IMG/VR virus record: IMGVR_UViG_2695420482_000015
Strand: one strand, 5' to 3'
DNA length: 38,662 nt
From: a virus
Taxonomy: Duplodnaviria; Heunggongvirae; Uroviricota; Caudoviricetes
The notes beneath the pieces are model-generated. The model saw nothing but the letters and a program-made list of their open reading frames with translations, ran no database searches and had not been told where the DNA came from. This document shows positions 5,753 to 38,662 of this stretch, piece by piece (the first letter of the stretch is position 1; each line of letters starts with the position of its first letter). A program made the position numbers and the translations under genes.

Positions 5753-6848
5753 CAGACACTCCAGTCATGTTAAGAGTGATTGCCGTACAGTTTGCCCATT
5801 CGTTTTCTGCCACCACCCGCAGTGCCGGTGTCACCAGTTCAACCTGGTACACCCCGGAAACGGACAATGCACTGATAATCTGGCTGGGGACAATATCGCG
5901 CCCCAGCGTGGCGGCACGTGATGCCACCCAGTTCTGTATGGCGCTGTTAGCGGCATCTTTTACAGACCTGGCATCCTGATCACGATAGATCGTAATCCTG
6001 GCTTCAATGGTGTAATCCACCTTCACTGGTGTTTTAGCCCGCACTGTATCAGTGAGTGGCCTGACTTTCTCATCAGAGCAGAAACTCTCTACCAGCGTGA
6101 GAACACCGCCGTCCGGCAGACCGGTACTGAGCAGCGGATACAGATCTACGGTCCCGGGAACCGGGGAAAGCACAGCAACATCGACAATGTTGGGATGGGC
6201 CTGCATGGCATGAAAGCGGTATGCGCCACGGCTTCCGGCATTGGTGAATGACTCCGGGGCCAGCCTGATACGCTCCCGGAGCCTGTCATCGTCTTCCTGT
6301 TCTGAACCGCCGGAACTGGCCGTCAGATTGCTCACCAGCAGGTCGACGTTATCAATCTCATCGAGTAACTGACTGACCTGCGCAGGTTGCCAGCCGTTAC
6401 CAGCGGTACCGGGTTCGGTACAGGTGGACGTGACATTGACCAGCAGCAATCCGGCCTTCAGTACCACATCTGTATCGGTGGCAAAAATAACGCTGTCGGA
6501 AGCGCTGACGCGGGTGCCTGCCGGGATCAGCACATCAATGGCCAGTGCCTCATCTACGGAGAACTGGAGCGTGGTAGTGGCAGGCTGCGCGGCAAGACGG
6601 TATACACCGACCAGTTCACCGAGGTAATCAATCATCGGCTCACGGGCAAAGGCGACCAGATTCTGCTTTGCTGCCTCCTGTACCGCAACCCTGACCAGCA
6701 TTTCGCGATAGGCCCACAGATCAATCAGCAGACGTTCTGCCTGTGCCGGGTACAGCGTTTTGCCGGTATCCGCTTCATACTTCGCAATCATTTCTGCCGT
6801 GATTTTGTCGGCATCGCGTTCAATAAAATCGGGTTCTGTCAGCGCCAT
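5745..6848 (-). CDS. Baseplate protein, P2 gpJ-like
   Basis: 367 aa; baseplate J-like sequence and synteny (W-J-I-H). Confidence 0.8.
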   Translation of the reverse strand: MALTEPDFIERDADKITAEMIAKYEADTGKTLYPAQAERLLIDLWAYREMLVRVAVQEAAKQNLVAFAREPMIDYLGELVGVYRLAAQPATTTLQFSVDEALAIDVLIPAGTRVSASDSVIFATDTDVVLKAGLLLVNVTSTCTEPGTAGNGWQPAQVSQLLDEIDNVDLLVSNLTASSGGSEQEDDDRLRERIRLAPESFTNAGSRGAYRFHAMQAHPNIVDVAVLSPVPGTVDLYPLLSTGLPDGGVLTLVESFCSDEKVRPLTDTVRAKTPVKVDYTIEARITIYRDQDARSVKDAANSAIQNWVASRAATLGRDIVPSQIISALSVSGVYQVELVTPALRVVAENEWANCTAITLNMTGVSDD

Positions 6849-26282: not shown

Positions 26283-26629
26283 AGTCCTGTTGCCACAGCC
26301 AGGCAGACCGCTGCAACAATCAGTGCACGGCGGATTAACGCAGCAGAAAACACCAGGTGAAGGCCGGTCTGTACCGGGAAACGCCCTTCAGCCATCAGCC
26401 TGTCGTCATGTTTCAGGTACTGACCGGGACGGGCTTTGGGGAAGAGCGAACGGTCAAGCCAGTAACCCAGCACTGCTGCCAGCGTGATAAGTGCCAGCTT
26501 GTAGATCACAACAGGCAACTGCTGTGGCGAGACCAGAGCGATGATGCCCAGCAACAGCACTGAGGTCAGCAGCCAGCCGCTGAGGCGAGGTTTTTTAACA
26601 GGGGGAATGAATTTTTTCAGGTTTTTCAT
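26279..26629 (-). CDS. Putative holin / lysis membrane protein
   Basis: ~116 aa from the ATG preceded by GAGGAGA; two predicted TM segments; first gene of the lysis cassette, start overlaps endolysin. Confidence 0.55.
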   Translation of the reverse strand: MKNLKKFIPPVKKPRLSGWLLTSVLLLGIIALVSPQQLPVVIYKLALITLAAVLGYWLDRSLFPKARPGQYLKHDDRLMAEGRFPVQTGLHLVFSAALIRRALIVAAVCLAVATGL

Positions 26630-26743
26630 GTGTGTCTCCTCGTTTGGTGGAGACAGCATCACAAATGTGGCGGGATACGGATTTTAAACAGCGTTAATAG
26701 TGAAGATGTAAACGTGCACTGCATGATGACTTTGAAAGAACGA

Positions 26744-26771
26744 CCAGCCCGGTACCCGAACACCGGGCTGG
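26744..26771. other. Perfect 9-bp inverted repeat stem-loop (ccagcccgg…ccgggctgg) in the dam/lysis divergent intergenic region
   Basis: Seen directly; no clear U-tract on either strand. Confidence 0.4.
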
Positions 26772-26876
26772 CCATCGCCCCACAGGAATGCGCTGTGAGC
26801 CGACCGAGGTTCAGTCAGTCTCGCGAGACCAGACTAGCCTGCCATATTTTTTATAATTGTAAAAGGCTTACAGATT

Positions 26877-27647
26877 ATGAAAATGCAGACATTACCCATC
26901 GTTCCATGGATTGGTGGCAAACGCCGCCTTGCAAAACACATCCTGCCGCTGTTTCCGGCGCATGAATGTTATGTGGAGCCGTTTTGTGGGGCAGCAGCGC
27001 TCTATTTTCTTAAGGTACCCGGCAAGATCGAAGTCATTAATGATATCAACGGTGAACTGGTGAACCTGTATCGGGTGGTAAAACATCATCTGGAAGAATT
27101 TGTACGCCAGTTCAAATGGGCGCTGGTCAGCCGGCAGATCTACAAATGGCTGCAGATCACCCCGGAAGAAACACTGACGGATATCCAGCGTGCAGCACGG
27201 TTCTACTACCTTCAGAAGCAGGCGTTTGGAGGCAAGGTGGCGGAGCACAGCTTTGGTACCTCCACCATATCCCCGCCACGCTTCAACCTGCTGCGTATTG
27301 AAGAAGAACTGTCAGCGGCACACCTGCGGCTTTCCAGAACGGTCATAGAACACATGGACTGGCAACAGTGCATAGAACGATATGATCGCCCGCATACGTT
27401 GTTCTACTGTGACCCTCCATACTGGGGAACGGAAGGTTATGGTGTGGAGTTCGGACTAGAAAATTATGATCATATGGCAGATTTAGCACGCAGGATCAAA
27501 GGGAAGATGATTATATCGGTGAACGATATCCCGGAAATGCGGCAGGCATTCAACGGTCTAAATATTCAGTCGGTTGATATCAGCTACAACCTCAAGATCA
27601 CTGGCAAATCCAGTCGCAAGAAGGAACTCATTATCCTCAACTTTTGA
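26877..27647 (+). CDS. DNA N6-adenine methyltransferase (Dam-like, orphan)
   Basis: 256 aa; N-terminal WIGGKRRL and FCGAAALYF AdoMet-binding motifs and DPPY catalytic motif (FYCDPPYWGT); no adjacent restriction endonuclease gene recognised. Confidence 0.85.
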   Translation: MKMQTLPIVPWIGGKRRLAKHILPLFPAHECYVEPFCGAAALYFLKVPGKIEVINDINGELVNLYRVVKHHLEEFVRQFKWALVSRQIYKWLQITPEETLTDIQRAARFYYLQKQAFGGKVAEHSFGTSTISPPRFNLLRIEEELSAAHLRLSRTVIEHMDWQQCIERYDRPHTLFYCDPPYWGTEGYGVEFGLENYDHMADLARRIKGKMIISVNDIPEMRQAFNGLNIQSVDISYNLKITGKSSRKKELIILNF

Positions 27648-28842
27648 CCGAATAGTAAGACTTCATGCAGTGAATCAAGTACTGCATGAAGTCAAGGGCT
27701 GGTTTTGTGTACCAAAAATAAACAGTGATAGCGGTAATAATTCCCATAACTAGAACACCACGTATAATCCAGAACGTACGTTTCTGCGTGTCTAGTCGCG
27801 CAGAAATACTGCTAAATACACCAGCCACGTCATCTTTAATGAAGGAATATTCCTTATTAATCTGTTTTTCTTTGTATTCAATTTCTTCGCCTAAGGCCTT
27901 TATAGATTGCATCTGGTTCGAAAGTGCCAGCCAGATTAACGTTGCAGCAAAAATGCATCCCAGAAGAATTATTGTGTTTGTTATCCCTTGGCCTGACCAT
28001 TTCGTAGCCACTTTGAATTGGGTAGCTACGATAACAGAGGCAACAGGAATGCCAAGTATATGGTTCTGGATATCTGAAAACGCTTTGTGGATTTTACCCA
28101 TTTCTTCGACTTTTGCAGCACGCAGTTGATCCATTACTTTGTCATAAGAGAATCCAGAAGAGTAGATACGATACCCTTTCAGAAACTTTTCATGCAGACG
28201 CTGAATATTGTCCAGTAAATAAGCGAATACTAGAGGTGAATCAATTCCATCACTAACTGCTTGGATACTTTCAATCAGAATATCTAGCTTCTGATCCTTA
28301 TGGGTATCATCATTGAAACAAGCTATAAGGTTATCAAGATACTCTCTTTGCAAATTTTGTACATTTTCTGCAGCGAAGTGCGGTAATAGCTTGATAACTT
28401 CTTTTTTCAGAAAAACTAACTGACAAGTTGAGTTATCAAAGTAGGCCGCGGCCTCTTTTAGCAGGTTAACGAACTCGAGAATCTTCCGGTAGTTGCTGAT
28501 GAAAACGGGGATATCTTCATCATCATTACGAAACTTTGTTTCTAGGATGAAGTAATTAGCTGGCTCAAGGCACTGATGCTTTGGAGCATTTAGCAATTTT
28601 TCATGGGTGGAAAACACAAGTCCCAGTCCACTCCGTGGTGACGTCACACGTAGGATGATCGTGTTACCTGGAGCGATAGTGCCTGTATCAATAGAAAGAC
28701 CATATTCACGAGGATCATCAAGCAAAGTATCAACCAGATCACAATCGGACTGATCTAAGAGCAACAGCGAACCGACACGAAACCCCTCTTGGAATTCCAT
28801 ACGACGATACAGATCTGTCAGCATCTCAAATGAAATCGCCAC
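27637..28842 (-). CDS. Hypothetical protein with soluble N-terminal domain and two C-terminal TM helices (candidate effector)
   Basis: 401 aa; GTG start 2 nt after the upstream stop with GAGG RBS (translational coupling); TM segments ITNTIILLGCIFAATLIWLALS and FWIIRGVLVMGIITAITVYFWY; AT-rich. Confidence 0.7.
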   Translation of the reverse strand: MAISFEMLTDLYRRMEFQEGFRVGSLLLLDQSDCDLVDTLLDDPREYGLSIDTGTIAPGNTIILRVTSPRSGLGLVFSTHEKLLNAPKHQCLEPANYFILETKFRNDDEDIPVFISNYRKILEFVNLLKEAAAYFDNSTCQLVFLKKEVIKLLPHFAAENVQNLQREYLDNLIACFNDDTHKDQKLDILIESIQAVSDGIDSPLVFAYLLDNIQRLHEKFLKGYRIYSSGFSYDKVMDQLRAAKVEEMGKIHKAFSDIQNHILGIPVASVIVATQFKVATKWSGQGITNTIILLGCIFAATLIWLALSNQMQSIKALGEEIEYKEKQINKEYSFIKDDVAGVFSSISARLDTQKRTFWIIRGVLVMGIITAITVYFWYTKPALDFMQYLIHCMKSYYSVKS

Positions 28843-28844
28843 GA

Positions 28845-29852
28845 TTAAACCTCAGTCATCCACATTTCCCTAAATTCTTCAGGTACATTACGTAGGGTGA
28901 TAATATTTGTTTCCGGATCATAATCAATATAGCCTTCAGTTTTCCCTTCCCGGTCAAACTTAAGTTCCCAATATTTAGACTTGCCTTTAAAAGATACCAG
29001 AGCCCGAATGACTCGACCATCAGGAACGAAGCCATCCGATAACTCCAACTCTTCAGCAGCAAGTTTACCAGATAACTCCTCGGGAGCCTGGGGCCAAATG
29101 GCATTAACAAGGGTTTCAAGACTAAGTGGTTCACCAGCCTTACTTAGTGCATGTAAGTGTTCAAACGCACTCTTAAGAAATGCATCTTTTTCAGCGCCGT
29201 CAAGTCCTTTCTCTGCCGCAAATGCTTTTAAAACGTCACGTAACTTTTCAGACTCTCGTTTGGCGATTAAGACATCATTACAGCCGAGGAACTGTTTAAA
29301 ATAGTTTGAAACATTACCTTGCCCCTTAAGAAAACTGATATAGCGCTCTGCGCCACTTTCCCACGCGGTTAAGTCAATGCGCCCAGCCATACGCAGCTTA
29401 GCAATATCAAGATAGGTACTATCTTGGATGTTAAAATCATCTGTGACAGTGGATCCAATGGTAGCGCTTACAATAGCTATCAACAGGTGTTCATTGTGTC
29501 CTATCACGATATTTGCAAAAAGAACATAACCACCAGTAGCCATGTTTTCTCGCTGAGAACGTTCCGTCAGGTGATGCATCATTCGGCAGGAACTTTGGTA
29601 GAAATCATCAACACCTTCGAGAAAGTCCCCAGCCATTCGTTCCATAGGATAGTTATCCGTATCGCCTTCAAAATAGCCATAACCTTTACCTGTGCGTCCT
29701 GCATATTTTGCACAAATATCGTTTATAAGGCGCTGGGAGGCTTCAGTAACTAGACCTTCTTCAGGACTCAATCTCTCAGAAGCGTCTCCATTTTGTTGTT
29801 TGTCTAAAATGTGAACTACAACGTGTTTAACTTCAATGGTCTGCTCAGACAT
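28845..29852 (-). CDS. Nucleoid-associated protein NdpA/YejK-like (NA37 family) paralog, phage-encoded
   Basis: 335 aa, same length as E. coli YejK; recalled YejK blocks align (GGYVLF…LLIAIVS; …YLDIAKLRMAGRIDLTAWESGAERYISFLKGQG…; C-terminal …YDPETNIITLR…). From memory, no search run. Confidence 0.65.
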   Translation of the reverse strand: MSEQTIEVKHVVVHILDKQQNGDASERLSPEEGLVTEASQRLINDICAKYAGRTGKGYGYFEGDTDNYPMERMAGDFLEGVDDFYQSSCRMMHHLTERSQRENMATGGYVLFANIVIGHNEHLLIAIVSATIGSTVTDDFNIQDSTYLDIAKLRMAGRIDLTAWESGAERYISFLKGQGNVSNYFKQFLGCNDVLIAKRESEKLRDVLKAFAAEKGLDGAEKDAFLKSAFEHLHALSKAGEPLSLETLVNAIWPQAPEELSGKLAAEELELSDGFVPDGRVIRALVSFKGKSKYWELKFDREGKTEGYIDYDPETNIITLRNVPEEFREMWMTEV

Positions 29853-29922
29853 TAGCTATCCACCTTATTTTTTATTGCTTAATGGCAAATAATTTCTGCT
29901 ATATGTTCTCGTTAGGAACACA

Positions 29923-30958: not shown

Positions 30959-31870
30959 ATGGGACGCACCAAATCACCGGTTAGCACTGAACTGAACGTC
31001 GAGGTACCGCTGTCGGATGATCTCAATGTCAGTCTAAACGCCATGACACAGCATCGCATGGAAATCATGCAACAGTTCGGCGATGGTCTGCCCTATGAGC
31101 GCGATCGTGTTGTCCATGAGGCACGCTTTTATATGGCACAGAGCGCTGAGGCCATGCTGGAGGCAGGTAAGCGGCTGATAATCCTTAAGGAAAATGAACC
31201 ACACGGGGAGTTTATAAAGATTCTTGAAAGTGAGTTGGGGCTGGCATACCGGACATCTGTGAGAATGATGCAAGCATCGACAAAATACTTATCCCCGGCG
31301 CTGAAACCAAATGTGCCAACGTTGGCACATTTGGGAAAAGCCAAACTTTTCGAATTAATGACAGAAGACGACGAAGAGCTTGCCGAACTGGCCGACGGCG
31401 GCACAGTTGCCGGCCTGACGCTTGACGACGTTGATCGCATGTCAGTACGTGAATTGCGTCAGGCCCTGCGCGAAGCGCGCGAAACCAACGCAGCACAACA
31501 GCGCGTACTCGCTGACAAAAATGAAAAAATAGACTCACTCTCCACCAGACTGGAGAAGAAATCCCGTATTCAGCCGCCTGAGCCTGATGAAGAGGTTAAG
31601 AAGCTGCGGGCGGAAGTGACAGCATTAGCGGTTGAGGCGGAATCTGCTATCGCCGTTCGACTGTCCAGCGCTTTTGAGACGCTGTGCGCATATTGTGCTG
31701 AAAACATGATTGATACCCCCAGAGACTTCATGGCAGGCCTGGTCTGTCAACTGGAAAGCACAGCGCGTAGCCTGCGCTCCACATTTGACCTGCCGGATGA
31801 GCCAACAGGCAATGCCGCGCCTTCATGGCTGACTGAGCCGACGCCACAGATTAACGGGCTGGAGGCATAA
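30959..31870 (+). CDS. Hypothetical early protein
   Basis: 303 aa ORF with coiled-coil region, immediately upstream of the transposase. Confidence 0.5.
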   Translation: MGRTKSPVSTELNVEVPLSDDLNVSLNAMTQHRMEIMQQFGDGLPYERDRVVHEARFYMAQSAEAMLEAGKRLIILKENEPHGEFIKILESELGLAYRTSVRMMQASTKYLSPALKPNVPTLAHLGKAKLFELMTEDDEELAELADGGTVAGLTLDDVDRMSVRELRQALREARETNAAQQRVLADKNEKIDSLSTRLEKKSRIQPPEPDEEVKKLRAEVTALAVEAESAIAVRLSSAFETLCAYCAENMIDTPRDFMAGLVCQLESTARSLRSTFDLPDEPTGNAAPSWLTEPTPQINGLEA

Positions 31871-31873
31871 CCA

Positions 31874-33643
31874 ATGAATGCTGCCCTGACTGAACGACTG
31901 GTTTATGTCGCCCGCGCGGCACGTGACGCGGGGCATGGTAAACGCGGTGCAATATACGACGCTGCCTGTGCTGAACTTGGCATGTCCCGCGCCACTCTGC
32001 TGCGCAGGCTGAAGGAGGTCTCTGTGACTGATAAACGCAAAAAACGCGCTGATGCCGGACGCAGCGCCCTGACCCGCGACGAAGCCGCGCTGATATCTGC
32101 CACACTGCGTGAGGCCACCCGCAAGAACGGTAAGCGTCTCTATTCCATCGCGGATGCAGTGGAAACCCTGCGGGCTAACGGCTTTATCTCCGCAGGCAGA
32201 ACAGATGAAACCACCGGTGAGTTTTTCCCGTTGTCCGAAGATGCCATCAGTCGTGCCCTGCGTAACTATGGCCTGCACCCGGAACAACTGGATGCTCCTG
32301 CGCCGCATACCGAAGTGGCCAGTCTGCATCCCAATCATGTCTGGCAGATTGATGCCTCGCTCTGCACGCTTTACTACCTGAGCAATGGACACAAAGGGCT
32401 GCAGGTGATGGACAGCGCGAAGTTCTACAAGAACAAACCCGCTAACCTTGCCCGTATCGCCAGTGACCGCGTGTGGAGTTACGAGATTACCGACCATGCC
32501 AGCGGCTGGATTTACGTTGAGTATGTGACGGGTGCGGAATCCGGTGAGAACCTGTGTTCTGTGCTTATCAACGCCATGCAGGAGCGTGGCGGCGCAGACG
32601 TGCTGCACGGCGTGCCAAAAATACTCTATCTCGACCCCGGTTCGGCAAACACCGCGGGTATGACGAAAAACATGTGCCGCTCACTGGGCATTGACCTGAT
32701 AGCGCACAAGCCGCATAACGCCCGCGCCACCGGACAGGTGGAAAAGGCGCGTGACATTATCGAACGCAAGCTGGAGCCGGGTCTGAAGTTCCGGCCGGTT
32801 CACAGTCTGGAAGAACTCAACGCGCTGGCCGCGAAATGGCGCAGCCACTTTAACGCCACGGCTGTTCACAGCCGCCACGGTAAAACCCGCACGGATATCT
32901 GGCTGAAGATTACTGCTGAGCAGCTGAAAAAAGCGCCTTCCGTTGAGGTATGTCGTGAACTGGCTGTGGCGGCACCAGAACTCCGCAAAGTCACGCCAAA
33001 ACTTCGTGTCTCGTTCCGGGGCACTGAATTTGACGTATCAACGGTACCGGGCGTACTGGTTGGTGAAAAACTGATGATTACCCGTAACCCATGGCGCAGC
33101 GATGTGGCACAGGTGGTTCTGACCGGTGAGGACGGCCACGAGACGTTCTTCCTGGTCGAAGAGGTCAGAAAGAACGAGTTTGGCTTTGCTGAAGGCGCGG
33201 CGGTATTTGGCGAAAGTTACAAAGCCCTGCCGGAAACCCCGGCACAGATGGCGGCAAAAGAAACCGAAGCGCTGGTTACCGGTACAGACAACGCCGCAGA
33301 TGCAGCCGCCGCACGCAAGGCGAAGGCGCTGCCGTTCGGCGGGCGGCTTGACCCGTATAAACATATCGACGACACCACACTTCCGGCCTATATGCCGAAG
33401 CGTGGTCAGGCCTCTGACGTACGCGGGCCGCGCACTGAACAACGTCCCATGACTCATGTGGAGGCCGCGAAAGCCCTGCGCGATAAGTTCAGCGCCGACG
33501 GCCTTACCTGGACGCCGGAACATTACCGCCAGTTAACGGCACAGTACCCGGACGGCGTACCGGAAGCCGCACTGGATGAAGTCATGGCCACGCTGACCAC
33601 ACCGGCCCGCAGCAGTGTTATCAGCATTGTTAACGGCAACTGA
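31874..33643 (+). CDS. DDE transposase (integrase-core type; functional analogue of Mu A, BcepMu TnpA-like)
   Basis: 589 aa; candidate DDE triad in HVWQIDAS, ILYLDPGSAN and TGQVEKAR; followed by MuB-like ATPase; lacks the MuA N-terminal domain. Confidence 0.8.
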   Translation: MNAALTERLVYVARAARDAGHGKRGAIYDAACAELGMSRATLLRRLKEVSVTDKRKKRADAGRSALTRDEAALISATLREATRKNGKRLYSIADAVETLRANGFISAGRTDETTGEFFPLSEDAISRALRNYGLHPEQLDAPAPHTEVASLHPNHVWQIDASLCTLYYLSNGHKGLQVMDSAKFYKNKPANLARIASDRVWSYEITDHASGWIYVEYVTGAESGENLCSVLINAMQERGGADVLHGVPKILYLDPGSANTAGMTKNMCRSLGIDLIAHKPHNARATGQVEKARDIIERKLEPGLKFRPVHSLEELNALAAKWRSHFNATAVHSRHGKTRTDIWLKITAEQLKKAPSVEVCRELAVAAPELRKVTPKLRVSFRGTEFDVSTVPGVLVGEKLMITRNPWRSDVAQVVLTGEDGHETFFLVEEVRKNEFGFAEGAAVFGESYKALPETPAQMAAKETEALVTGTDNAADAAAARKAKALPFGGRLDPYKHIDDTTLPAYMPKRGQASDVRGPRTEQRPMTHVEAAKALRDKFSADGLTWTPEHYRQLTAQYPDGVPEAALDEVMATLTTPARSSVISIVNGN

Positions 33644-33653
33644 GGAGGGAAAC

Positions 33654-34820
33654 ATGCTGGTACTGAAGCAGCAACTGAAAGAGGCCCGTATTCCACAGGC
33701 GGTGGTGGCGAGAGCTGTCGATGTTTCTGAGGCCACGCTGGCCCAGATTGTGAATCATAACGCGTGGCCCCGCACCAGCCCCGGAGAAGTGCGCCGGCGT
33801 CTTGCGTCCTGGCTGGAAAGTCAGGGGATTGATACAACGAAGAGTTTTGATGCTGTACAGGGCGCGGCCACGCCCCGTACAGCGGGTACCACAGATAAAA
33901 CGAGCCTCAGTGAGGAAGAGAATATGTTACTCAAAAAACAGGTGTTATTTCCAGCAACCAAAAAAGCGTTTGGTCTTTTCCGTGACCCGTTCGCCGACGA
34001 AGCCATGCAGGGTTCTGATGATGTGTTCACCACCCCGGATATTCGCTACGTGCGTGAGGCGTTGTACCAGACAGCCCGTCATGGTGGGTTTATGGCCGTC
34101 ATCGGTGAGTCCGGTGCGGGTAAATCCACGCTGCGCCGCGACCTGACTGAACGTATCAACCGCGAGAATGCGCCGGTAATTGTTATCGAGCCATACATCA
34201 TCGCTATGGAAGACAACGATGTGAAAGGGAAAACCCTGAAGGCAGCAGCGATTGCCGAAGCCATTATCAGTACCATCGCACCACTGGAAAGCATCAGACG
34301 CAGTCAGGACGCCCGCTTTCGCCAGTTGCATCGCGTCCTGAAAGACAGCAGCCAGGCGGGGTTCAGCCACGTTCTGGTGATTGAGGAGGCCCACAGTCTG
34401 CCCATTCCGACACTGAAACACCTCAAACGCTTTTTTGAGCTGGAGTCCGGTTTCAAAAAACTGCTGTCCATCGTGCTGATTGGCCAGCCGGAACTGGCGA
34501 CAAAACTGTCTGAACGCAATATGGAAGTCCGTGAAGTCGTTCAGCGCTGTGAGGTGGTCGAACTTCTGCCTCTGGACAATAACCTTGAAGAGTTTCTGAC
34601 GTTCAAACTGCAACGGGCCGGTAAACAACTGACGGACATTATGGACGCCAGCGCAGTGGATGCCATACGTGCCCGCCTGAGCAATCCGGGAAGTCATCGT
34701 AAAAATATGGTCAGCCTGCTGTATCCGCTGGCCGTCAGTAACCTGGTAATAGCCGCCATGAATCTGGCCGCTGAAATCGGGGTTCCACAGGTCAACGCTG
34801 ACGTTGTCAAAGGGGTTTAA
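33654..34820 (+). CDS. Transposition helper ATPase (MuB/TniB-like AAA+)
   Basis: Start at ATG after GGAGGG; Walker A (GESGAGKST) and Walker B-like (HVLVIEEAH). Confidence 0.8.
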   Translation: MLVLKQQLKEARIPQAVVARAVDVSEATLAQIVNHNAWPRTSPGEVRRRLASWLESQGIDTTKSFDAVQGAATPRTAGTTDKTSLSEEENMLLKKQVLFPATKKAFGLFRDPFADEAMQGSDDVFTTPDIRYVREALYQTARHGGFMAVIGESGAGKSTLRRDLTERINRENAPVIVIEPYIIAMEDNDVKGKTLKAAAIAEAIISTIAPLESIRRSQDARFRQLHRVLKDSSQAGFSHVLVIEEAHSLPIPTLKHLKRFFELESGFKKLLSIVLIGQPELATKLSERNMEVREVVQRCEVVELLPLDNNLEEFLTFKLQRAGKQLTDIMDASAVDAIRARLSNPGSHRKNMVSLLYPLAVSNLVIAAMNLAAEIGVPQVNADVVKGV

Positions 34821-34822
34821 TA

Positions 34823-35092
34823 ATGAAATCCACCACAGGTATCAACCAGCAAATCAGCAAAGTGCAGTCAGCCATTATGGCGCTTAAGGCGACGAACACG
34901 GATGTACAAAGCATCACCATCAGGGGTAACAAACCTGTCATCCGCGTTTCCCGGAGTGCGCATTGCATGCGCATGCTTGAGCAGGGAAAGGCCTGTTATC
35001 TGTATACCGGTCATGACCACAGGGGACATTTCCGTCAGGGCGTTTTCGAACTGCACGGCTGTCGCGTCGTGTGGCCGGAATCTTTGTGGTAA
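34823..35092 (+). CDS. Hypothetical small early protein
   Basis: 89 aa ORF between the B-like and gam genes. Confidence 0.45.
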   Translation: MKSTTGINQQISKVQSAIMALKATNTDVQSITIRGNKPVIRVSRSAHCMRMLEQGKACYLYTGHDHRGHFRQGVFELHGCRVVWPESLW

Positions 35093-35119
35093 TCAGCACA
35101 ACAGGAGGAGTCATAAAAT

Positions 35120-35650
35120 ATGGCAAAAAGTACAAAAGGGGCAAAACGTATCAAAGCCGCAGCAGCACTCTGGGTGCCGGGGACACGCGAAGAGGTCATT
35201 GAGGGAATCAGACTGCTTGGTGACGCGCAACGTGAACTGGTCAGGGCTGAAACAGAAATGAATGACACCATTGGCGACATCACTGCACGTTATGCCCCGC
35301 TCACCGAGAGCCTGAAAAAACGCATGGCCGAACTGCAGTCCGGTATCCAGACATGGTGTGAGGCGCACCGTGATGAACTGACCGGCAACGGGAAGGTGAA
35401 GTTCGCTAACCTCACCACCGGCGAGGTGCAGTGGCGAAACCGTCCGCCGTCAGTCAGCATTCGCGGGGCGGATAATGTCATTGAACTGCTGAGACGTCTG
35501 GGGCTTGAGCGCTTTATTCGTGTAAAGGAGGAAATAAATAAAGATGCCATTCTGAATGAAAAAGAGGCTGTGAAAAATATTCCCGGTATTACCATAAAAA
35601 GTGATATTGAGGATTTTTCAATAATTCCTTTTGAGCAGGATGTGCAGTAA
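35120..35650 (+). CDS. gam: Host-nuclease inhibitor protein Gam (Mu Gam/Ku-like)
   Basis: 176 aa; close match to recalled Mu Gam along its length (MAK…KRIK…AAA…ETEMND…WCEA(N/H)RDELT…RPPSVSIRG…GITVKSGIEDFSIIPFEQ). Confidence 0.9.
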   Translation: MAKSTKGAKRIKAAAALWVPGTREEVIEGIRLLGDAQRELVRAETEMNDTIGDITARYAPLTESLKKRMAELQSGIQTWCEAHRDELTGNGKVKFANLTTGEVQWRNRPPSVSIRGADNVIELLRRLGLERFIRVKEEINKDAILNEKEAVKNIPGITIKSDIEDFSIIPFEQDVQ

Positions 35651-35747
35651 ACACACCACGTTAATTATTTAATAAAAACATTTTCTTTTTTATTCCGGCG
35701 TCAGCGCCGCGGGCTTCTGCACGCCGGAAACAGAGGAGAATTAAATT

Positions 35748-35942
35748 ATGATATTTAAATGTATTCAGTGCGAGAGGGATATAACAGCCCTGCGTTTTCA
35801 CAGCGCCATCGCCGTGATGTCCGGTAAGTATCACATACCTGCAGTACGTGTCACCCTGGTCTGCCCGTACTGCAGCCAGCATTTTTCGGCGGACGTGCCC
35901 GTCATGGAATTCTCCCGCCCTGACAGGGAGGACGCGCAATGA
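35748..35942 (+). CDS. Small zinc-ribbon-like protein (CxxC…CxxC)
   Basis: 64 aa with CIQC and CPYC pairs; RBS GAGGAG upstream. Confidence 0.5.
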   Translation: MIFKCIQCERDITALRFHSAIAVMSGKYHIPAVRVTLVCPYCSQHFSADVPVMEFSRPDREDAQ

Positions 35943-36211
35943 TTACCCCACAGGAAGCACGACAGCGCACCCGAACTCTTGTTGAACACTATGTCAACGA
36001 GTGTGAATGCCGCGACCTCACCGATGTGAAGCACGTCCTGACGGCGCTAATCAGCATGGCCACACAGGCCATTGTGGCGACCAACGGAAAGGAGGCTGCC
36101 CTGCAGGTACTGATGAACACACTCACCCACACGGCAGAGCATGAGGTGCCGTACCGGATGGAAACCACTGCAGAAGGCGGCCTGCACATCACCGTCAGCC
36201 GGAAGCACTGA
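35939..36211 (+). CDS. Hypothetical early protein
   Basis: 90 aa ORF, overlapping start and stop with neighbours. Confidence 0.45.
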   Translation: MITPQEARQRTRTLVEHYVNECECRDLTDVKHVLTALISMATQAIVATNGKEAALQVLMNTLTHTAEHEVPYRMETTAEGGLHITVSRKH

Positions 36212-36220
36212 GGGCGCGGC

Positions 36221-36517
36221 ATGACACGAAACACCGAACTCACCCGCACCGCCCTCTACCGTCTGGCCCTGCAGCGTTTCGGGCCGGACGCACAGGCCCT
36301 GAAACTGGCAGAAGAGGCCGCTGAACTGGCGGCCAGTGCCGCCCGCAACCTGAACGGACAGGGCAGCGAAAGTGACCTCGCGGCAGAGCTGGCAGACGTG
36401 GAAATCATGACAGAGCAACTGCGCCTTCAGGGGATGGACCGGCTGATTGACTTCCACAAACAGAAAAAACTGGAACGTCTGGCTGCACGACTGGGCGTGA
36501 TTTACACGAACGAGTAA
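36221..36517 (+). CDS. MazG-like nucleotide pyrophosphohydrolase (small, single-domain)
   Basis: 98 aa with paired acidic helical motifs (LAEEAAELAASA and AAELADVEIMTEQL), typical of the all-alpha NTP-PPase fold. Confidence 0.6.
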   Translation: MTRNTELTRTALYRLALQRFGPDAQALKLAEEAAELAASAARNLNGQGSESDLAAELADVEIMTEQLRLQGMDRLIDFHKQKKLERLAARLGVIYTNE

Positions 36518-36531
36518 CCGGGAGGCATTCA

Positions 36532-36747
36532 ATGGCTGACATACTCAGGGAAATCACCGCATGGACACTGATTCTTACTGGCCTGGCGACATGCCTCAGT
36601 GCGGGGGCAGCCCTGGCTGCCCTGCTGATGCACATAACAACACAGTGGTTATGGGAAAAGCTTAAAGCAGCATACAGCCTGAAAGAGCTGTCCGACGCTG
36701 TCCGGGCATGGAAACGGCAGAAAAATACCGGAGATACAGAACAATGA
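36532..36747 (+). CDS. Small membrane protein
   Basis: 71 aa with one hydrophobic helix. Confidence 0.45.
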   Translation: MADILREITAWTLILTGLATCLSAGAALAALLMHITTQWLWEKLKAAYSLKELSDAVRAWKRQKNTGDTEQ

Positions 36748-37427
36748 CAGACCAGAATAAACACATTGAGAAACTGAAAAAGTTGCTGGCGCTGGCCGCA
36801 TCCGGCAACCCGCACGAGGCCGCTCTGGCACTGCGCCGAGCCCGTAAACTGATGGATGTTCACGGCATCACACATTCCGACATTGCTATGAGTGATATTG
36901 ATGAAACCATCAGTCACTACTGGCCGACAGGCAGTCTCCGTCCACCGCGCTACATGCTGGGCCTGATGAACATCATCCGCGAGGTATTTGGTGTTAACTC
37001 CATCATTCACCCCGGCACGCATCCGTCTGTGGGGTTCTACGGCAACCGGGAACGTGCGGCACTGGCTGCATACACCTGGGAAGTGCTGGCCCGTCAGCTG
37101 AAAAAGGCGCGTCAGCAGTATATCAGTGCACAGAACAAAAGAATAAAAACCGCCACCCGCACCAGCCGTGGAGACCAGTTTGCCGAAGGCTGGGTGCTGG
37201 CCGTTATCAGTGAAATACAGTCCTTTGCCCTGACCGATGATGAGCGTGAACTGATGCAGCAGTGGCTGGAACATAAATACCCGCAGACGCAAACCACCAG
37301 GGCGCGTAAACCGGGAAGAAGCCGCAATGGCGACGCCTCGCGCTATGCGGGGTTTCGTGAAGGGCAGAACGTCAGACTGCACCGCCCGGTCAGTGGGCAG
37401 GAACAACAGAAACTGGAGGCCAGATGA
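36744..37427 (+). CDS. Conserved phage protein
   Basis: Start at internal ATG (MTDQNKHIEKLKKLLALA…) overlapping the upstream stop; ~227 aa. Confidence 0.5.
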   Translation: MTDQNKHIEKLKKLLALAASGNPHEAALALRRARKLMDVHGITHSDIAMSDIDETISHYWPTGSLRPPRYMLGLMNIIREVFGVNSIIHPGTHPSVGFYGNRERAALAAYTWEVLARQLKKARQQYISAQNKRIKTATRTSRGDQFAEGWVLAVISEIQSFALTDDERELMQQWLEHKYPQTQTTRARKPGRSRNGDASRYAGFREGQNVRLHRPVSGQEQQKLEAR

Positions 37428-37654
37428 TTACGCTATCAGGTAAAAGCCGGAAATTAAAAGCCTGCCGAATATCTGCCAGATACCTTTTTGCCCGCGCCTT
37501 TTTTAAGAACGTCAGGCCGGGGATCACAATTGGTGTTATTGCCGGACGCGAACAGGTTGAAAAATACATGTCAGGTGCATGGTGGAATAACGACCCTGTC
37601 ATTGCTGCCCGTAATATTCATATCGAATGGGGAGGTATTCAGAATGACTACTGA
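37424..37654 (+). CDS. Hypothetical small early protein
   Basis: 76 aa ORF. Confidence 0.4.
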   Translation: MITLSGKSRKLKACRISARYLFARAFFKNVRPGITIGVIAGREQVEKYMSGAWWNNDPVIAARNIHIEWGGIQNDY

Positions 37655-37851: not shown

Positions 37852-38301
37852 ATGCAGAAAAAACGCCTGATACAGCTTATCCATATTGCCCGTAATGAAC
37901 TGGGTATGGATGAAGACACCTACCGCCAGATGTTACAGGGGCTGACCGGTAAAGCCTCAACCAAAGGAATGGATACCACACAACTAAACTGCGTGCTGGA
38001 ATCCATGAAAAAGAAAGGCTTTCGCGTTAAACCAGCCAGAAAAGCCAGCTCCGGTTTACCGCTTGATAACCATCCGCAGTCCAGGAAAATTCGTGCGCTA
38101 TGGCTTGAAATGGCTGCTGCCGGCATTGTTCGTGACCGTTCAGAAAATGCATTAGCGAGGTGGATCAAGCGGGAAACGGGCATCAGCGCCCTGCGCTGGC
38201 TCAGTACTGAACAGGCAAGCAGTGTTATTGAGAAACTGAAGAAGTGGCAGCGCAGAGCTGCGGGAGTCAAACATGAGCGACCTGAATCAGTTTCGAAGTA
38301 A
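37852..38301 (+). CDS. gemA: GemA-like regulatory protein (Mu gp16-like)
   Basis: 149 aa; N-terminal LIQLIHIARNELGMDEDTYRQMLQGLTGKAS pattern typical of Mu GemA-family proteins; immediately upstream of mor. Confidence 0.75.
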   Translation: MQKKRLIQLIHIARNELGMDEDTYRQMLQGLTGKASTKGMDTTQLNCVLESMKKKGFRVKPARKASSGLPLDNHPQSRKIRALWLEMAAAGIVRDRSENALARWIKRETGISALRWLSTEQASSVIEKLKKWQRRAAGVKHERPESVSK

Positions 38302-38662
38302 GGGGCCGGAACTCCTGGTGGAACTGGCACAGCATACCTCTGAGACCGTTCGCGAGATTATTGATATTGAGCCCGAAGTTGCCGACCAGATTGGTCAGGC
38401 CGTCGCGAACCGAATGATGCAGGTCTGGGGCGGGCAAAACGTTTATTTCCCGATGGGCATGGTATGGAAGGTCAGTCAGCGCGACCGGGAAATCTTCAGG
38501 GAGTTTAACGGACGCAACCACCACGAACTGGCCCGCAAATTTGGTGTTTCGCTTCAGTGGGTCTACAGCGTGGTTAAGCGGGTAAGAAAAGAAGAACTGG
38601 ATCGGATGCAGGGCAAGCTATTTGCTGATGAACCCGATGCAGATACGGAGAAAAAAGAGTAA
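38273..38662 (+). CDS. mor: Middle operon regulator Mor-like transcription activator
   Basis: 129 aa (same length as Mu Mor) with C-terminal HTH (ELARKFGVSLQWVYSVVKR); stop codon is the last triplet of the window. Confidence 0.8.
   Translation: MSDLNQFRSKGPELLVELAQHTSETVREIIDIEPEVADQIGQAVANRMMQVWGGQNVYFPMGMVWKVSQRDREIFREFNGRNHHELARKFGVSLQWVYSVVKRVRKEELDRMQGKLFADEPDADTEKKE

Follow-up and report, generated by a model that had tools for sequence, protein, structure and literature searches.

Orphan DNA methyltransferases (MTases) related to Dam are carried by temperate phages, several of them Mu-like, as exemplified by ORF48 of the Pseudomonas phage B3, gp27 of phiE125, gp26 of phi1026b, and the Dam protein of VP882, and the presumed role of B3 ORF48 and its relatives is the modification of phage DNA. 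The phiE125 gp27 protein reportedly produces N6-methyladenine. The dam gene of B3 is part of the late tail operon, where it comes immediately behind the gene for a Com-like translational regulator and overlaps it. A methylase (p50 of MuM16-1) is listed among the proteins common to Mu-like phages (PMC8541194). Moreover, a DNA-modification gene for anti-restriction is common in Mu-like prophages, and the modification genes of transposable phages are expected to act late, shielding the packaged DNA from restriction (PMC3299994). For E. coli, M.EcoMIV (EC958_1101) has been described as an orphan type II MTase with a PF02086 domain in prophage Phi2 of strain EC958; no motif could be assigned to it, SMRT sequencing of EC958 revealed no unassigned m6A motif, and its transcription in the lysogen was significantly below that of dam (PMC4659465).

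Here, we analyzed a stretch of DNA of 38,662 nucleotides (the window), which is a BcepMu-like (Mu-like) transposable prophage of E. coli carrying the gene for an orphan D12-class (Dam-family, alpha-group) DNA MTase at 26877..27647 on the plus strand. The coding sequence runs from ATG to TGA, and its 256-residue product is identical to the RefSeq protein WP_000783856.1; the enzyme is thus already catalogued, and a close relative is taken as M.EcoMIV of REBASE. The protein matched PF02086 (Pfam, D12-class N6-adenine MTase) with an E-value of 7.3e-28 and 98.4 bits (cut-off, 22 bits), covering profile positions 1-248 of 253, and the PADLOC profile MTase_II (PDLC03253) over its full length with 382 bits, and it only just passed TIGR00571 "dam" (NCBIfam; 116.9 bits, cut-off 114.85). 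A profile of the family found DpnM at 1e-37, M.CbeI at 6e-37, and EcoDam at 1e-32.

Motif I (AdoMet binding; EPFCGAAA, residues 34-41, 26976..26999, plus strand), in which the family alignment shows no variation at E34 and G38 and hardly any at F36, pairs with VEPFVGAGS of EcoDam, and the catalytic motif IV (DPPY, residues 179-182, 27411..27422, plus strand) is invariant in the 58 family members. Motif I precedes DPPY in the protein chain, as in the alpha group, and both motifs align with those of EcoDam. The AlphaFold (AF2) model of the MTase had a pLDDT of 93.1, which fell to 83-84 across residues 111-130 in the region of the recognition hairpin, and a Foldseek search with this model returned EcoDam (E 5e-18, TM 0.80-0.85), followed by DpnM, M.CbeI, and T4 Dam. 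The dN/dS values against three alleles were 0.05-0.08, indicating strong purifying selection and, therefore, a real and maintained gene. These results indicate that the MTase is an intact member of the D12/Dam family by profile, motif order, and fold, in agreement with the initial annotation, which had described a complete MTase with a DPPY motif on the opposite strand.

For a prophage that is 100% identical, RefSeq lists no restriction endonuclease gene anywhere between the tail genes and the Mor gene, and the neighbours of the MTase are the genes for the holin, the NA37-like and 2-TM proteins, and the repressor. The MTase is therefore an orphan, as had been proposed from the lack of an evident restriction partner. 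It is encoded on the strand opposite to both flanking operons, with the repressor on one side and the lysis operon on the other, and the type phage BcepMu has other genes, and no MTase, in its repressor-holin interval. The features of a moron are thus present, namely, absence from the BcepMu junction, opposite orientation, and a conserved upstream block that travels with the gene. Because the MTase forms a self-contained unit on the opposite strand and is missing from BcepMu at this position, its earlier description as a stand-alone moron is fair.

Among 5426 complete E. coli genomes, the transposase was found in 639, the lysis module in 636, the MTase in 535, and the pair of NA37-like and 2-TM genes in 19; about one in ten of these genomes carries the MTase gene, and no megablast match to it was obtained in roughly 17% of the prophages in this species. 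The layout of holin, optional cargo, MTase, optional cargo, and repressor is shared by the prophages of ST131/EC958, KP12, PhiKM, and other E. coli, as well as by those of the ten other Enterobacterales genera sampled, barring the copies in which the MTase is deleted, replaced, or disrupted by an IS. In ST131, KP12, PhiKM, and the ten further genera, the MTase is in place with other cargo or with none. It is missing by deletion in strain A24, replaced in a Pantoea prophage, and IS-disrupted in an Apirhabdus prophage, and is therefore dispensable for the persistence of the prophage. Overall, the MTase is a near-fixed module of the repressor-holin interval in the enterobacterial branch of the BcepMu-like phages. 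As such, it provides a reliable anchor for the cargo hotspot of these prophages, which, because it carries defence-like genes, is good ground for mining new cargo.

The gene is always accompanied by a conserved non-coding block of ~145 bp (26733..26876), delineated by alignment, which is presumably the regulatory region of the MTase. The sequence of this block scarcely changes across ten genera; it has folding z-scores of -3.7 and -4.2, and it gave no Rfam match at E <= 1 except for a spurious match to a snoRNA. A 20-mer within it (26810-26829) was found exactly in 12 loci (12 different assemblies, ten Enterobacterales genera), 67-68 nt before the ATG wherever the MTase ORF was found. The same segment contains a perfect 12-bp palindrome, GTCTCGCGAGAC (26818..26829), which is invariant across genera, unique in the window, and centred 53 bp before the ATG, and which may be a site for a dimeric regulator. 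A Mor/C-type activator site common to the late promoters was considered and rejected, as the palindrome is unique and the 13 matches with up to 3 mismatches are at chance level; since the other putative late promoters lack the palindrome, dependence on Mor is unsupported.

At the left end of the block, a GC-rich hairpin of 16-17 bp (26739..26776, RNAalifold), which on the minus strand leads into UCGUUCUUUCA (26728-26738), is read as a putative intrinsic terminator of leftward transcription, located just before the lysis operon. In its stem, 99.6% of the alignment cells were paired, with 3 compensated and 4 wobble-only pairs, a result matched by 4 of 500 shuffles, and all of the one-sided changes result in G.U on the minus strand and in a C-A mismatch on the plus strand. 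A consensus scan of the window and ST131 detected a promoter-like site on the minus strand, TTTTCA-16-TACAAT (26856..26883), lying over the MTase start codon, the hexamers of which read CTTTCA/TGCAAT in other genera; together with the terminator, this site might perhaps yield a minus-strand RNA of ~115 nt.

On the plus strand, folding suggested a possible leader helix (26793..26873) between 26793-26801 (CUGUGAGCC) and 26865-26873 (GGCUUACAG), spanning part of the ribosome-binding region, for which 100% of the cells are paired, although its variation is limited to two wobble changes. Upstream of the MTase in the window, a scan of the plus strand gave no convincing sigma-70 promoter; a TATAAT at 26852-26857 is present in the E. 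coli copies and is not conserved in other genera. A Com-like translational regulator, as in B3 and Mu, was also considered and rejected, as 26600-26900 contains no such ORF; with no small zinc-finger Com ORF immediately upstream, the gene falls outside the com-mom/com-dam type of unit. The very strongly conserved, structured block is presumably a regulatory element.

Downstream, the MTase gene converges with that for the 2-TM protein (27637..28842, minus strand), next to which lies the gene for the NA37/YejK-like protein (28845..29852, minus strand; Pfam NA37, 1e-80), both of which are cargo outside the MTase module. The pair scored 75.9 bits with the NCBIfam model DS1_2 (cut-off, 315) and 63.7 bits with DS1_1 (cut-off, 330), which makes these proteins distant relatives of the two-protein anti-phage system DS-1, and its GC content is 38-44% versus a phage mean of 54%. 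Kiwa was rejected as the identity of the neighbour, as the KwaA match was weak (E 8e-5) and the KwaB match was absent. The MTase and 2-TM genes overlap at their 3' ends by exactly 11 bp (27637..27647, from the ORF coordinates), confirming the earlier estimate of about 11 bp, and an identical overlap is present in a diverged E. coli copy (L007) and in Mixta tenebrionis. No terminator was found between the two genes in the window, whereas the ST131-type phages have a strong minus-strand terminator at the junction 3' of the MTase. In addition, KP12, which has different cargo, shares the C-terminal allele of the MTase that is found next to the pair. The overlap is a junction of recombination and packing, and the 3' end of the MTase is mosaic.

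The designation of the enzyme as a Dam-like adenine MTase holds for its family and fold, whereas neither GATC specificity nor the modified base is settled by it: M.CbeI, which is equally similar and also has DPPY at residues 179-182, makes N4-methylcytosine, so that adenine is a family-based assignment. The predicted DNA-recognition hairpin (residues 117-137, FGGKVAEHSFGTSTISPPRFN, 27225..27287, plus strand; profile-to-PDB and pairwise alignment) is the counterpart of EcoDam 119-138, but is 3 residues shorter and lacks an equivalent of Arg124. The GATC-contact residues of EcoDam are said in the 2G1P structure paper to be K9, L122, R124, P134, and Y138; K9, R124, and L122 are replaced by P10, A122, and K120, respectively, in the MTase and are not conserved in the 58-member family, in an alignment of the recognition loop that is uncertain at such identity. 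GATC specificity therefore cannot be assumed, and a deduction of the target from the EcoDam contact residues was rejected, because the hairpin is too different and an m4C enzyme is equally close. No recognition motif for this subfamily was found in the literature on the BcepMu adenine methylase, phiE125, VP882/phiHAP-1, and EcoMIV. The target of this enzyme, which is encoded by about a tenth of the complete E. coli genomes and by a large part of ST131, represents a gap in the annotation of the E. coli methylome.

It is unlikely that the MTase is a GATC-specific second Dam that would keep the replicating (transposing) phage DNA fully methylated, with no role in anti-restriction, in order to evade nicking by MutH or sequestration by SeqA, or to set the timing of transposition or packaging, in the way that P1 Dam acts at pac. 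Of the relatives with solved structures, the best, DpnM and EcoDam, are specific for GATC, the threshold of the TIGR00571 dam subfamily is just passed, a GATC enzyme masked by the host Dam would also produce no new motif in EC958, and GATC is under selection in the phage, being strongly depleted (104 observed versus 148 +/- 12 simulated) and absent from 6.1 kb of the early operon. However, K9 and R124 lack conserved counterparts and the hairpin is shortened, the match to the E. coli Dam equivalog NF008152 is far below its cut-off (69.2 bits versus 441), M.CbeI, an m4C enzyme for GGCC, is as close as DpnM, none of the homologues with more than 65% identity has a motif in REBASE, and close homologues occur in Pseudomonas and Burkholderia hosts, which are not known to possess Dam. 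A relaxed or non-specific adenine enzyme like Hia5, Hin1523, and M.EcoGII, which would confer a broad, Mom-like protection from restriction, is quite improbable. The Mu-like prophages FluMu and Pnme1 do carry non-specific MTases with Dam-like folds and DPPY in place of mom (PMC3299994), tight silencing in the lysogen would be expected of a promiscuous enzyme (PMC4659465, discussion), and the short recognition hairpin shows poor conservation. Against this, B3 ORF48, which is 66% identical to the MTase, is outside the 1000 closest relatives of Hia5 (Drozdz et al., PMC3299994) and thus belongs to a different subfamily, and the helical target-recognition region is predicted to be well folded, with S85, R86, R105, and R151 invariant in the family, as expected of a sequence-specific enzyme. 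Tentatively, and with considerable doubt, we also entertain an unrecognised control at the RNA level combined with a non-GATC or m4C specificity. The minus-strand element, consisting of the ~115-nt RNA and its terminator, would overlap the promoter and the ribosome-binding region of the MTase, and the leader helix would mask the ribosome-binding site, so that the enzyme would be silenced in lysogens and freed in lytic growth. We consider this reading because the block is near-invariant, the terminator stem exhibits strand-specific wobble and compensatory changes, and the GATC-contact residues are absent.

The distribution of the genes and the data on the EC958 orthologue bear on two further proposals of the initial annotation. 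According to one of them, the MTase would be a self-protection component tied to the adjacent cassette. As an immunity partner, it could be imagined to mark own DNA in the manner of R-M or BREX-type systems, so that the cassette would spare it. Although the tight convergent overlap is kept in the diverged E. coli copy and in Mixta, and the MTase adjoins the pair in all 19 of the pair-bearing E. coli genomes, the pair is missing beside the MTase in most of the 535 E. coli genomes and the ten other genera that carry it, and three contexts contain the pair without any D12 MTase, namely, lambdoid prophages of Salmonella and Morganella and an island in Paraburkholderia. The self-protection idea is therefore unsupported; it is largely refuted by this distribution, which is of the kind that the initial annotation itself had named as refuting, and we regard it as highly improbable. 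Furthermore, DS-1 has just two NCBIfam models, DS1_1 and DS1_2, the pair-linked C-terminal allele is found with other cargo in KP12, and the MTase and the pair, being convergent, are not co-transcribed. A YejK-domain system has been validated as a cloned transcription unit, in a study whose main text does not use the name DS-1 (PMC13092281), which also counts against an immunity partner. The MTase is thus independent of the pair, which is one of many interchangeable inserts of the hotspot. The second proposal, an epigenetic moron, would make the MTase a regulator of lysogenic conversion that methylates the host DNA and alters host expression or phase variation. The moron-like architecture with its own upstream block and the frequent occurrence of the phage in clinical lineages, such as ST131, are in line with this proposal, and phage-borne MTases can reprogram their hosts, as in the case of M.EcoGIII (cited in PMC4659465). 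The methylase of the Mu-like prophage of EC958 (ST131) exhibits 88.6% amino acid identity to the window protein, with residues 1-180 nearly identical, and we infer that it is M.EcoMIV and the orthologue of the window MTase, EC958_1101 corresponding to EC958_RS05075 as judged from position and domain. Because this orthologue is transcribed far below dam in the lysogen and SMRT sequencing detected no extra m6A motif, an enzyme that is active in the lysogen is disfavoured, and transcription from the cargo side may also run antisense through the MTase of the window. Therefore, whereas the stand-alone part of the moron proposal stands, its epigenetic part appears improbable.

Lytic-phase marking of DNA for anti-restriction is the most likely role of this self-contained, pair-independent orphan MTase of the Dam family, with a probability of roughly 0.6. 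The enterobacterial BcepMu-like branch would have gained the module, consisting of the ~145-bp block and the coding sequence, in the variable repressor-holin interval and would have largely kept it. The enzyme would act alone and be held low in the lysogen. In the window phage, leftward transcription from the repressor and cargo side may run antisense through the MTase to the conserved minus-strand terminator upstream of the gene, as suggested by the lack of a terminator between the 2-TM gene and the MTase, unlike in ST131. During lytic development, the enzyme would be made and would transfer methyl groups from AdoMet to a short target on the replicating phage DNA and the host DNA, and the packaged genomes would reach the next host already modified against methylation-sensitive restriction. 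By analogy, this would be the same job as that of Mom in Mu and of the com-dam unit in B3. The lack of a convincing plus-strand sigma-70 promoter and of a Com-like ORF upstream of the gene argues against lytic-phase marking. The same holds for the palindrome being confined to this site, for the dispensability of the gene in the prophage, and for the strong depletion of GATC in the phage, a pattern that points to avoidance of this site and not to its protection. If the target were GATC, the MTase would duplicate the host Dam, and the gain in anti-restriction would therefore be small in Dam+ Enterobacterales.

Among the described enzymes, the Dam homologues of B3, phiE125/phi1026b, VP882, and MuM16-1 exhibit 64-66% identity to the window MTase over the full length. 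The window MTase differs from that of B3 in having no Com ORF, in place of which it has the conserved, structured, non-coding block. EcoDam, DpnM, and T4 Dam share the fold, the motif order, and the DPPY catalytic loop with the window MTase, at identities of 23-25% for EcoDam and DpnM and 15-17% for T4 Dam. In contrast to the housekeeping E. coli Dam, the window MTase is borne by a prophage, does not conserve the K9 and R124 counterparts, and has a shorter hairpin. M.CbeI of Caldicellulosiruptor bescii (PDB 7M6B), an alpha-class N4-cytosine MTase, is matched by the family profile as well as DpnM is (6e-37), with DPPY at the identical residue numbers 179-182 and a recognition hairpin of similar length, but it is a member of an R-M system of a thermophile, acts on N4 of cytosine, and is ~21-22% identical to the window MTase.

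For Mom of Mu and the FluMu-type enzymes Hia5, Hin1523, and Nma1821, the likeness to the window MTase is a functional analogy only. Mom, which makes acetamido-adenine, is unrelated to it in sequence and chemistry, and the Hia5 family is a Dam-like subfamily distinct from that of the window MTase. Furthermore, genes of the mom/Hia5 type are located at the right end of the phage, whereas the window MTase gene is located between the repressor and the lysis genes. In comparison with M.EcoMIV, the C-terminal ~70 residues of the window protein represent another allele, of the KP12/L007 type. The EC958 gene has three cargo genes before it and a terminator and the repressor directly after it, whereas the window gene lacks cargo on its upstream side and shares its 3' end with the 2-TM gene, without a terminator. 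Both, however, are orphans at equivalent positions in the same kind of BcepMu-like prophage.

The gene at 26877–27647 on the plus strand is an uninterrupted reading frame of 256 aa, which matched the D12-class N6-adenine DNA methyltransferases of Pfam (PF02086) over nearly the entire profile (E = 7e-28) and the type II methyltransferase (MTase) model of PADLOC over its full length (382 bits), and narrowly passed the NCBIfam 'dam' subfamily threshold (116.9 bits vs 114.85). The AdoMet motif EPFCGAAA (residues 34–41) lies N-terminal to the catalytic DPPY (residues 179–182, nt 27411–27422), which is the motif order of the alpha-group. In addition, the structure predicted from 58 homologues (pLDDT 93) superimposed on E. 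coli Dam (EcoDam) with a TM score of 0.80–0.85, and dN/dS against three other alleles was 0.05–0.08. Therefore, the MTase gene is real, intact and under purifying selection, and the initial annotation was right to call a complete Dam-family enzyme with a DPPY motif. The family comprises 21,226 representatives at E ≤ 1e-3, and the nearest phage relatives beyond Enterobacterales, with 64–66% identity, are the Dam homologues of the Pseudomonas Mu-like phage B3 (ORF48), Burkholderia phiE125/phi1026b, Vibrio VP882, Halomonas phiHAP-1, Shewanella MuM16-1 and Curvibacter TJ1.

The window is a transposable E. coli prophage of the BcepMu-like type (Bcepmuvirus), with tail genes of P2 type, head and terminase genes of Mu type and the lysis cassette on its minus strand, and an early operon of Mu type (Ner-like gene, DUF3102, DDE transposase, ExeA-type B protein, Gam, gp16 and Mor) on its plus strand. 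The MTase gene occupies the central interval between these two blocks, and its strand opposes that of both operons adjoining it. The right end of the prophage (38273–38662 and beyond) lies just past the Mor gene, with the phage end about 100 bp beyond the last base of the window. Several complete E. coli genomes carry copies that are 100% identical over the MTase gene and its downstream neighbours, an identity that extends to the lysis and transposase genes where these were compared. The chromosomal sites differ between strains, as expected for a phage that transposes in the manner of Mu: the prophage of EC958 adjoins ycaL, and that of DLI.5a interrupts a sodium:solute symporter gene. No restriction endonuclease was present among the RefSeq-annotated genes of the identical prophage, and the enzyme is therefore an orphan, as had been supposed. 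EC958_RS05075, in the Mu-like prophage at 1.03 Mb of the ST131 strain EC958, is 88.6% identical to the window MTase; from its position and domain, we take it to be M.EcoMIV (EC958_1101, prophage Phi2), which carries PF02086 (PMC4659465). The window MTase is an already-catalogued orphan Dam-family enzyme of a common E. coli prophage, ordinary in kind.

The 3′ end of the MTase gene overlaps that of a convergent gene (27637–28842, minus strand) by exactly 11 bp, in agreement with the approximate value reported before. This ORF encodes a 401-aa protein with two C-terminal TM helices (2-TM), and is paired with the gene for an NA37/YejK-like protein of 335 aa (28845–29852, minus strand, within 27637–29852; Pfam NA37, 1e-80). 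The initial annotation had proposed that the MTase might be a self-protection component tied to this cassette, and had set co-occurrence beforehand as the check that could refute it. A count over 5426 complete E. coli genomes gave 639 with the transposase, 636 with the lysis module, 535 with the MTase and only 19 with the pair. The recurrent layout is holin (minus), zero to three cargo genes, MTase (plus), zero to two cargo genes (minus) and repressor (minus). No cargo lies downstream of the MTase in ST131/EC958, and in further E. coli copies the cargo is either absent or made up of two unrelated hypothetical genes. The same holin–MTase–repressor layout was observed in Klebsiella phage KP12, in Escherichia phage PhiKM and in loci of Pantoea, Mixta, Buttiauxella, Trabulsiella, Intestinirhabdus, Ca. 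Erwinia, Limnobaculum, Pseudocitrobacter, Symbiopectobacterium and Apirhabdus, ten non-E. coli genera in which the cargo consists of lipoproteins, small secreted proteins and others. Conversely, 2-TM homologues in settings other than the MTase locus are always preceded by an NA37 gene: the pair lies between antiterminator Q and holin in lambdoid prophages of Salmonella and Morganella, and adjoins an Mrr-like nuclease in a Paraburkholderia island, with no D12 MTase beside it in any of these three settings. Therefore, the MTase and the pair are independent units; the distribution does not support the tie to the cassette, and favors the stand-alone MTase that had been offered as the alternative.

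Both pair proteins gave sub-threshold matches to the two NCBIfam DS-1 anti-phage models (63.7 and 75.9 bits vs cut-offs of 330 and 315), and the 2-TM protein weakly matched KwaA (E = 8e-5). The pair, which has a low GC content of 38–44%, looks like diverged DS-1-type defence cargo, separate from the MTase. We take DS-1 to be the YejK-domain anti-phage system validated in PMC13092281, the main text of which does not contain that name.

The MTase best fits the description of a moron as defined by Hendrix, an autonomous insert of long standing; it has come close to fixation in the enterobacterial branch, where it acts today as a recombination anchor at a cargo hotspot. In the type phage BcepMu, the MTase is absent and the repressor–holin interval holds three other genes (gp18–20). 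The gene is deleted except for its first 46 nt in E. coli A24, replaced by unrelated genes in Pantoea stewartii, and split by an IS21-like insertion in Apirhabdus apintestini; these three natural MTase-null prophages keep the conserved block upstream of the gene whole or in part. E. coli copies of the MTase gene mostly share 80–90% nucleotide identity, and the flanking lysis and transposase genes 95–99%. The window MTase hardly differs from the ST131 allele over residues 1–180, its final ~70 residues match the allele of KP12 and of a diverged E. coli copy (L007), and GC drops across the 3′ end toward the 38–44% of the cargo. This mosaic 3′ third points to recombination breakpoints within the gene, and such recombination accounts for the tight 11-bp junction. 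Across the comparison loci (L001–L003, L007–L011 and L013–L024), two cargo hotspots were seen, holin–MTase (26663–26876 in the window) and MTase–repressor (27648–29922), with interchangeable inserts: a KAP NTPase fragment, lipoproteins, small secreted proteins and unrelated two-gene sets.

The non-coding block of about 145 bp at 26733–26876 always accompanies the MTase, even where cargo lies between the block and the holin gene, and one of its 20-mers is exact in twelve loci from ten Enterobacterales genera. It contains a GC-rich hairpin (26739–26776) followed by UCGUUCUUUCA on the minus strand. Over 15 distinct sequences, 99.6% of the stem cells are paired, with compensatory changes at three pairs, and all one-sided changes give G·U on the minus strand and C-A on the plus strand. 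We read this hairpin as an intrinsic terminator for leftward transcripts, which would keep them out of the holin/lysis operon and stop any antisense RNA that crosses the MTase gene. The block also holds an invariant and unique 12-bp palindrome, GTCTCGCGAGAC, centered 53 bp before the ATG, and, on the plus strand, a putative helix, fully paired and near-invariant in sequence, that would mask part of the ribosome-binding region. A sequence scan gave a weak promoter-like site on the minus strand overlapping the MTase start codon, and a minus-strand RNA of about 115 nt is a possible candidate product of the block. No Rfam family matched the block, which is the sole unexplained element at the MTase locus.

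The specificity of the MTase cannot be read from its sequence. No methylation motif was attributable to M.EcoMIV, and no recognition site was known for any homologue with >65% identity (PMC4659465); a later determination was not found in our literature search. A 58-member family profile matched DpnM, a GATC enzyme, at 1e-37, M.CbeI at 6e-37, EcoDam at 1e-32 and T4 Dam at 1e-12. M.CbeI, in which DPPY occupies the same residue numbers (179–182), belongs to a restriction–modification system and is an N4-cytosine MTase of the alpha class. For the window MTase, N6-adenine is by far the more likely modified base. In the alignments, K9 and R124 of EcoDam, which reportedly recognize the outer G:C pairs of GATC in the work on structure 2G1P, have no conserved counterpart in the MTase; its recognition hairpin is three residues shorter than that of EcoDam, and it falls far below the cut-off of the E. 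coli Dam equivalog model. We hold GATC as the target only tentatively (probability about 0.4), and another discrete motif just as tentatively. Relaxed specificity is improbable; the non-specific enzymes Hia5/Hin1523 of FluMu-type prophages belong, according to their discoverers, to a different subfamily (PMC3299994).

With 104 sites in the window, compared to 148 ± 12 in first-order Markov simulations (z = -8.1), GATC shows a stronger deficit by z-score than any other 4-mer, although the observed/expected ratio is lower still for CCTA/TAGG and CCAA/TTGG. A GATC-free stretch of 6089 bp in the early operon (31434–37521) spans the transposase, the B-like gene, Gam and downstream early genes, whereas no gap in 300 simulations exceeded 2659 bp. 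This depletion argues mildly against reliance of the phage on its own GATC methylation; GATC-free regions have also been noted in ST131 mobile elements (PMC4659465).

The initial annotation had left open an anti-restriction or an epigenetic role. Transcription of M.EcoMIV was significantly below that of dam in mid-log LB cultures (PMC4659465), and this near silence of the presumed orthologue in the lysogen speaks against a lysogenic epigenetic role; a lytic anti-restriction role is more likely. In ST131-type phages, a strong minus-strand intrinsic terminator (11-bp stem and T-run; 5772–5796 of the ST131 locus L003) lies between the repressor and the MTase. In the window, no terminator separates the 2-TM gene from the MTase (27637–27647) because the two overlap, so that transcripts entering leftward from the repressor/cargo side should cross the whole MTase gene antisense. 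Such convergent transcription is expected only in variants with cargo, such as the window phage, in which it may reinforce silencing in the lysogen. In the lytic phase, the MTase would methylate replicating phage DNA, and unavoidably host DNA too, since Mu-type replication takes place within the chromosome, and packaged genomes would arrive pre-modified against the restriction of the next host. Mom has this role in Mu, and com-dam is presumed to have it in B3, in which the MTase homologue lies within the late tail operon, after the gene for a Com-like translational regulator.
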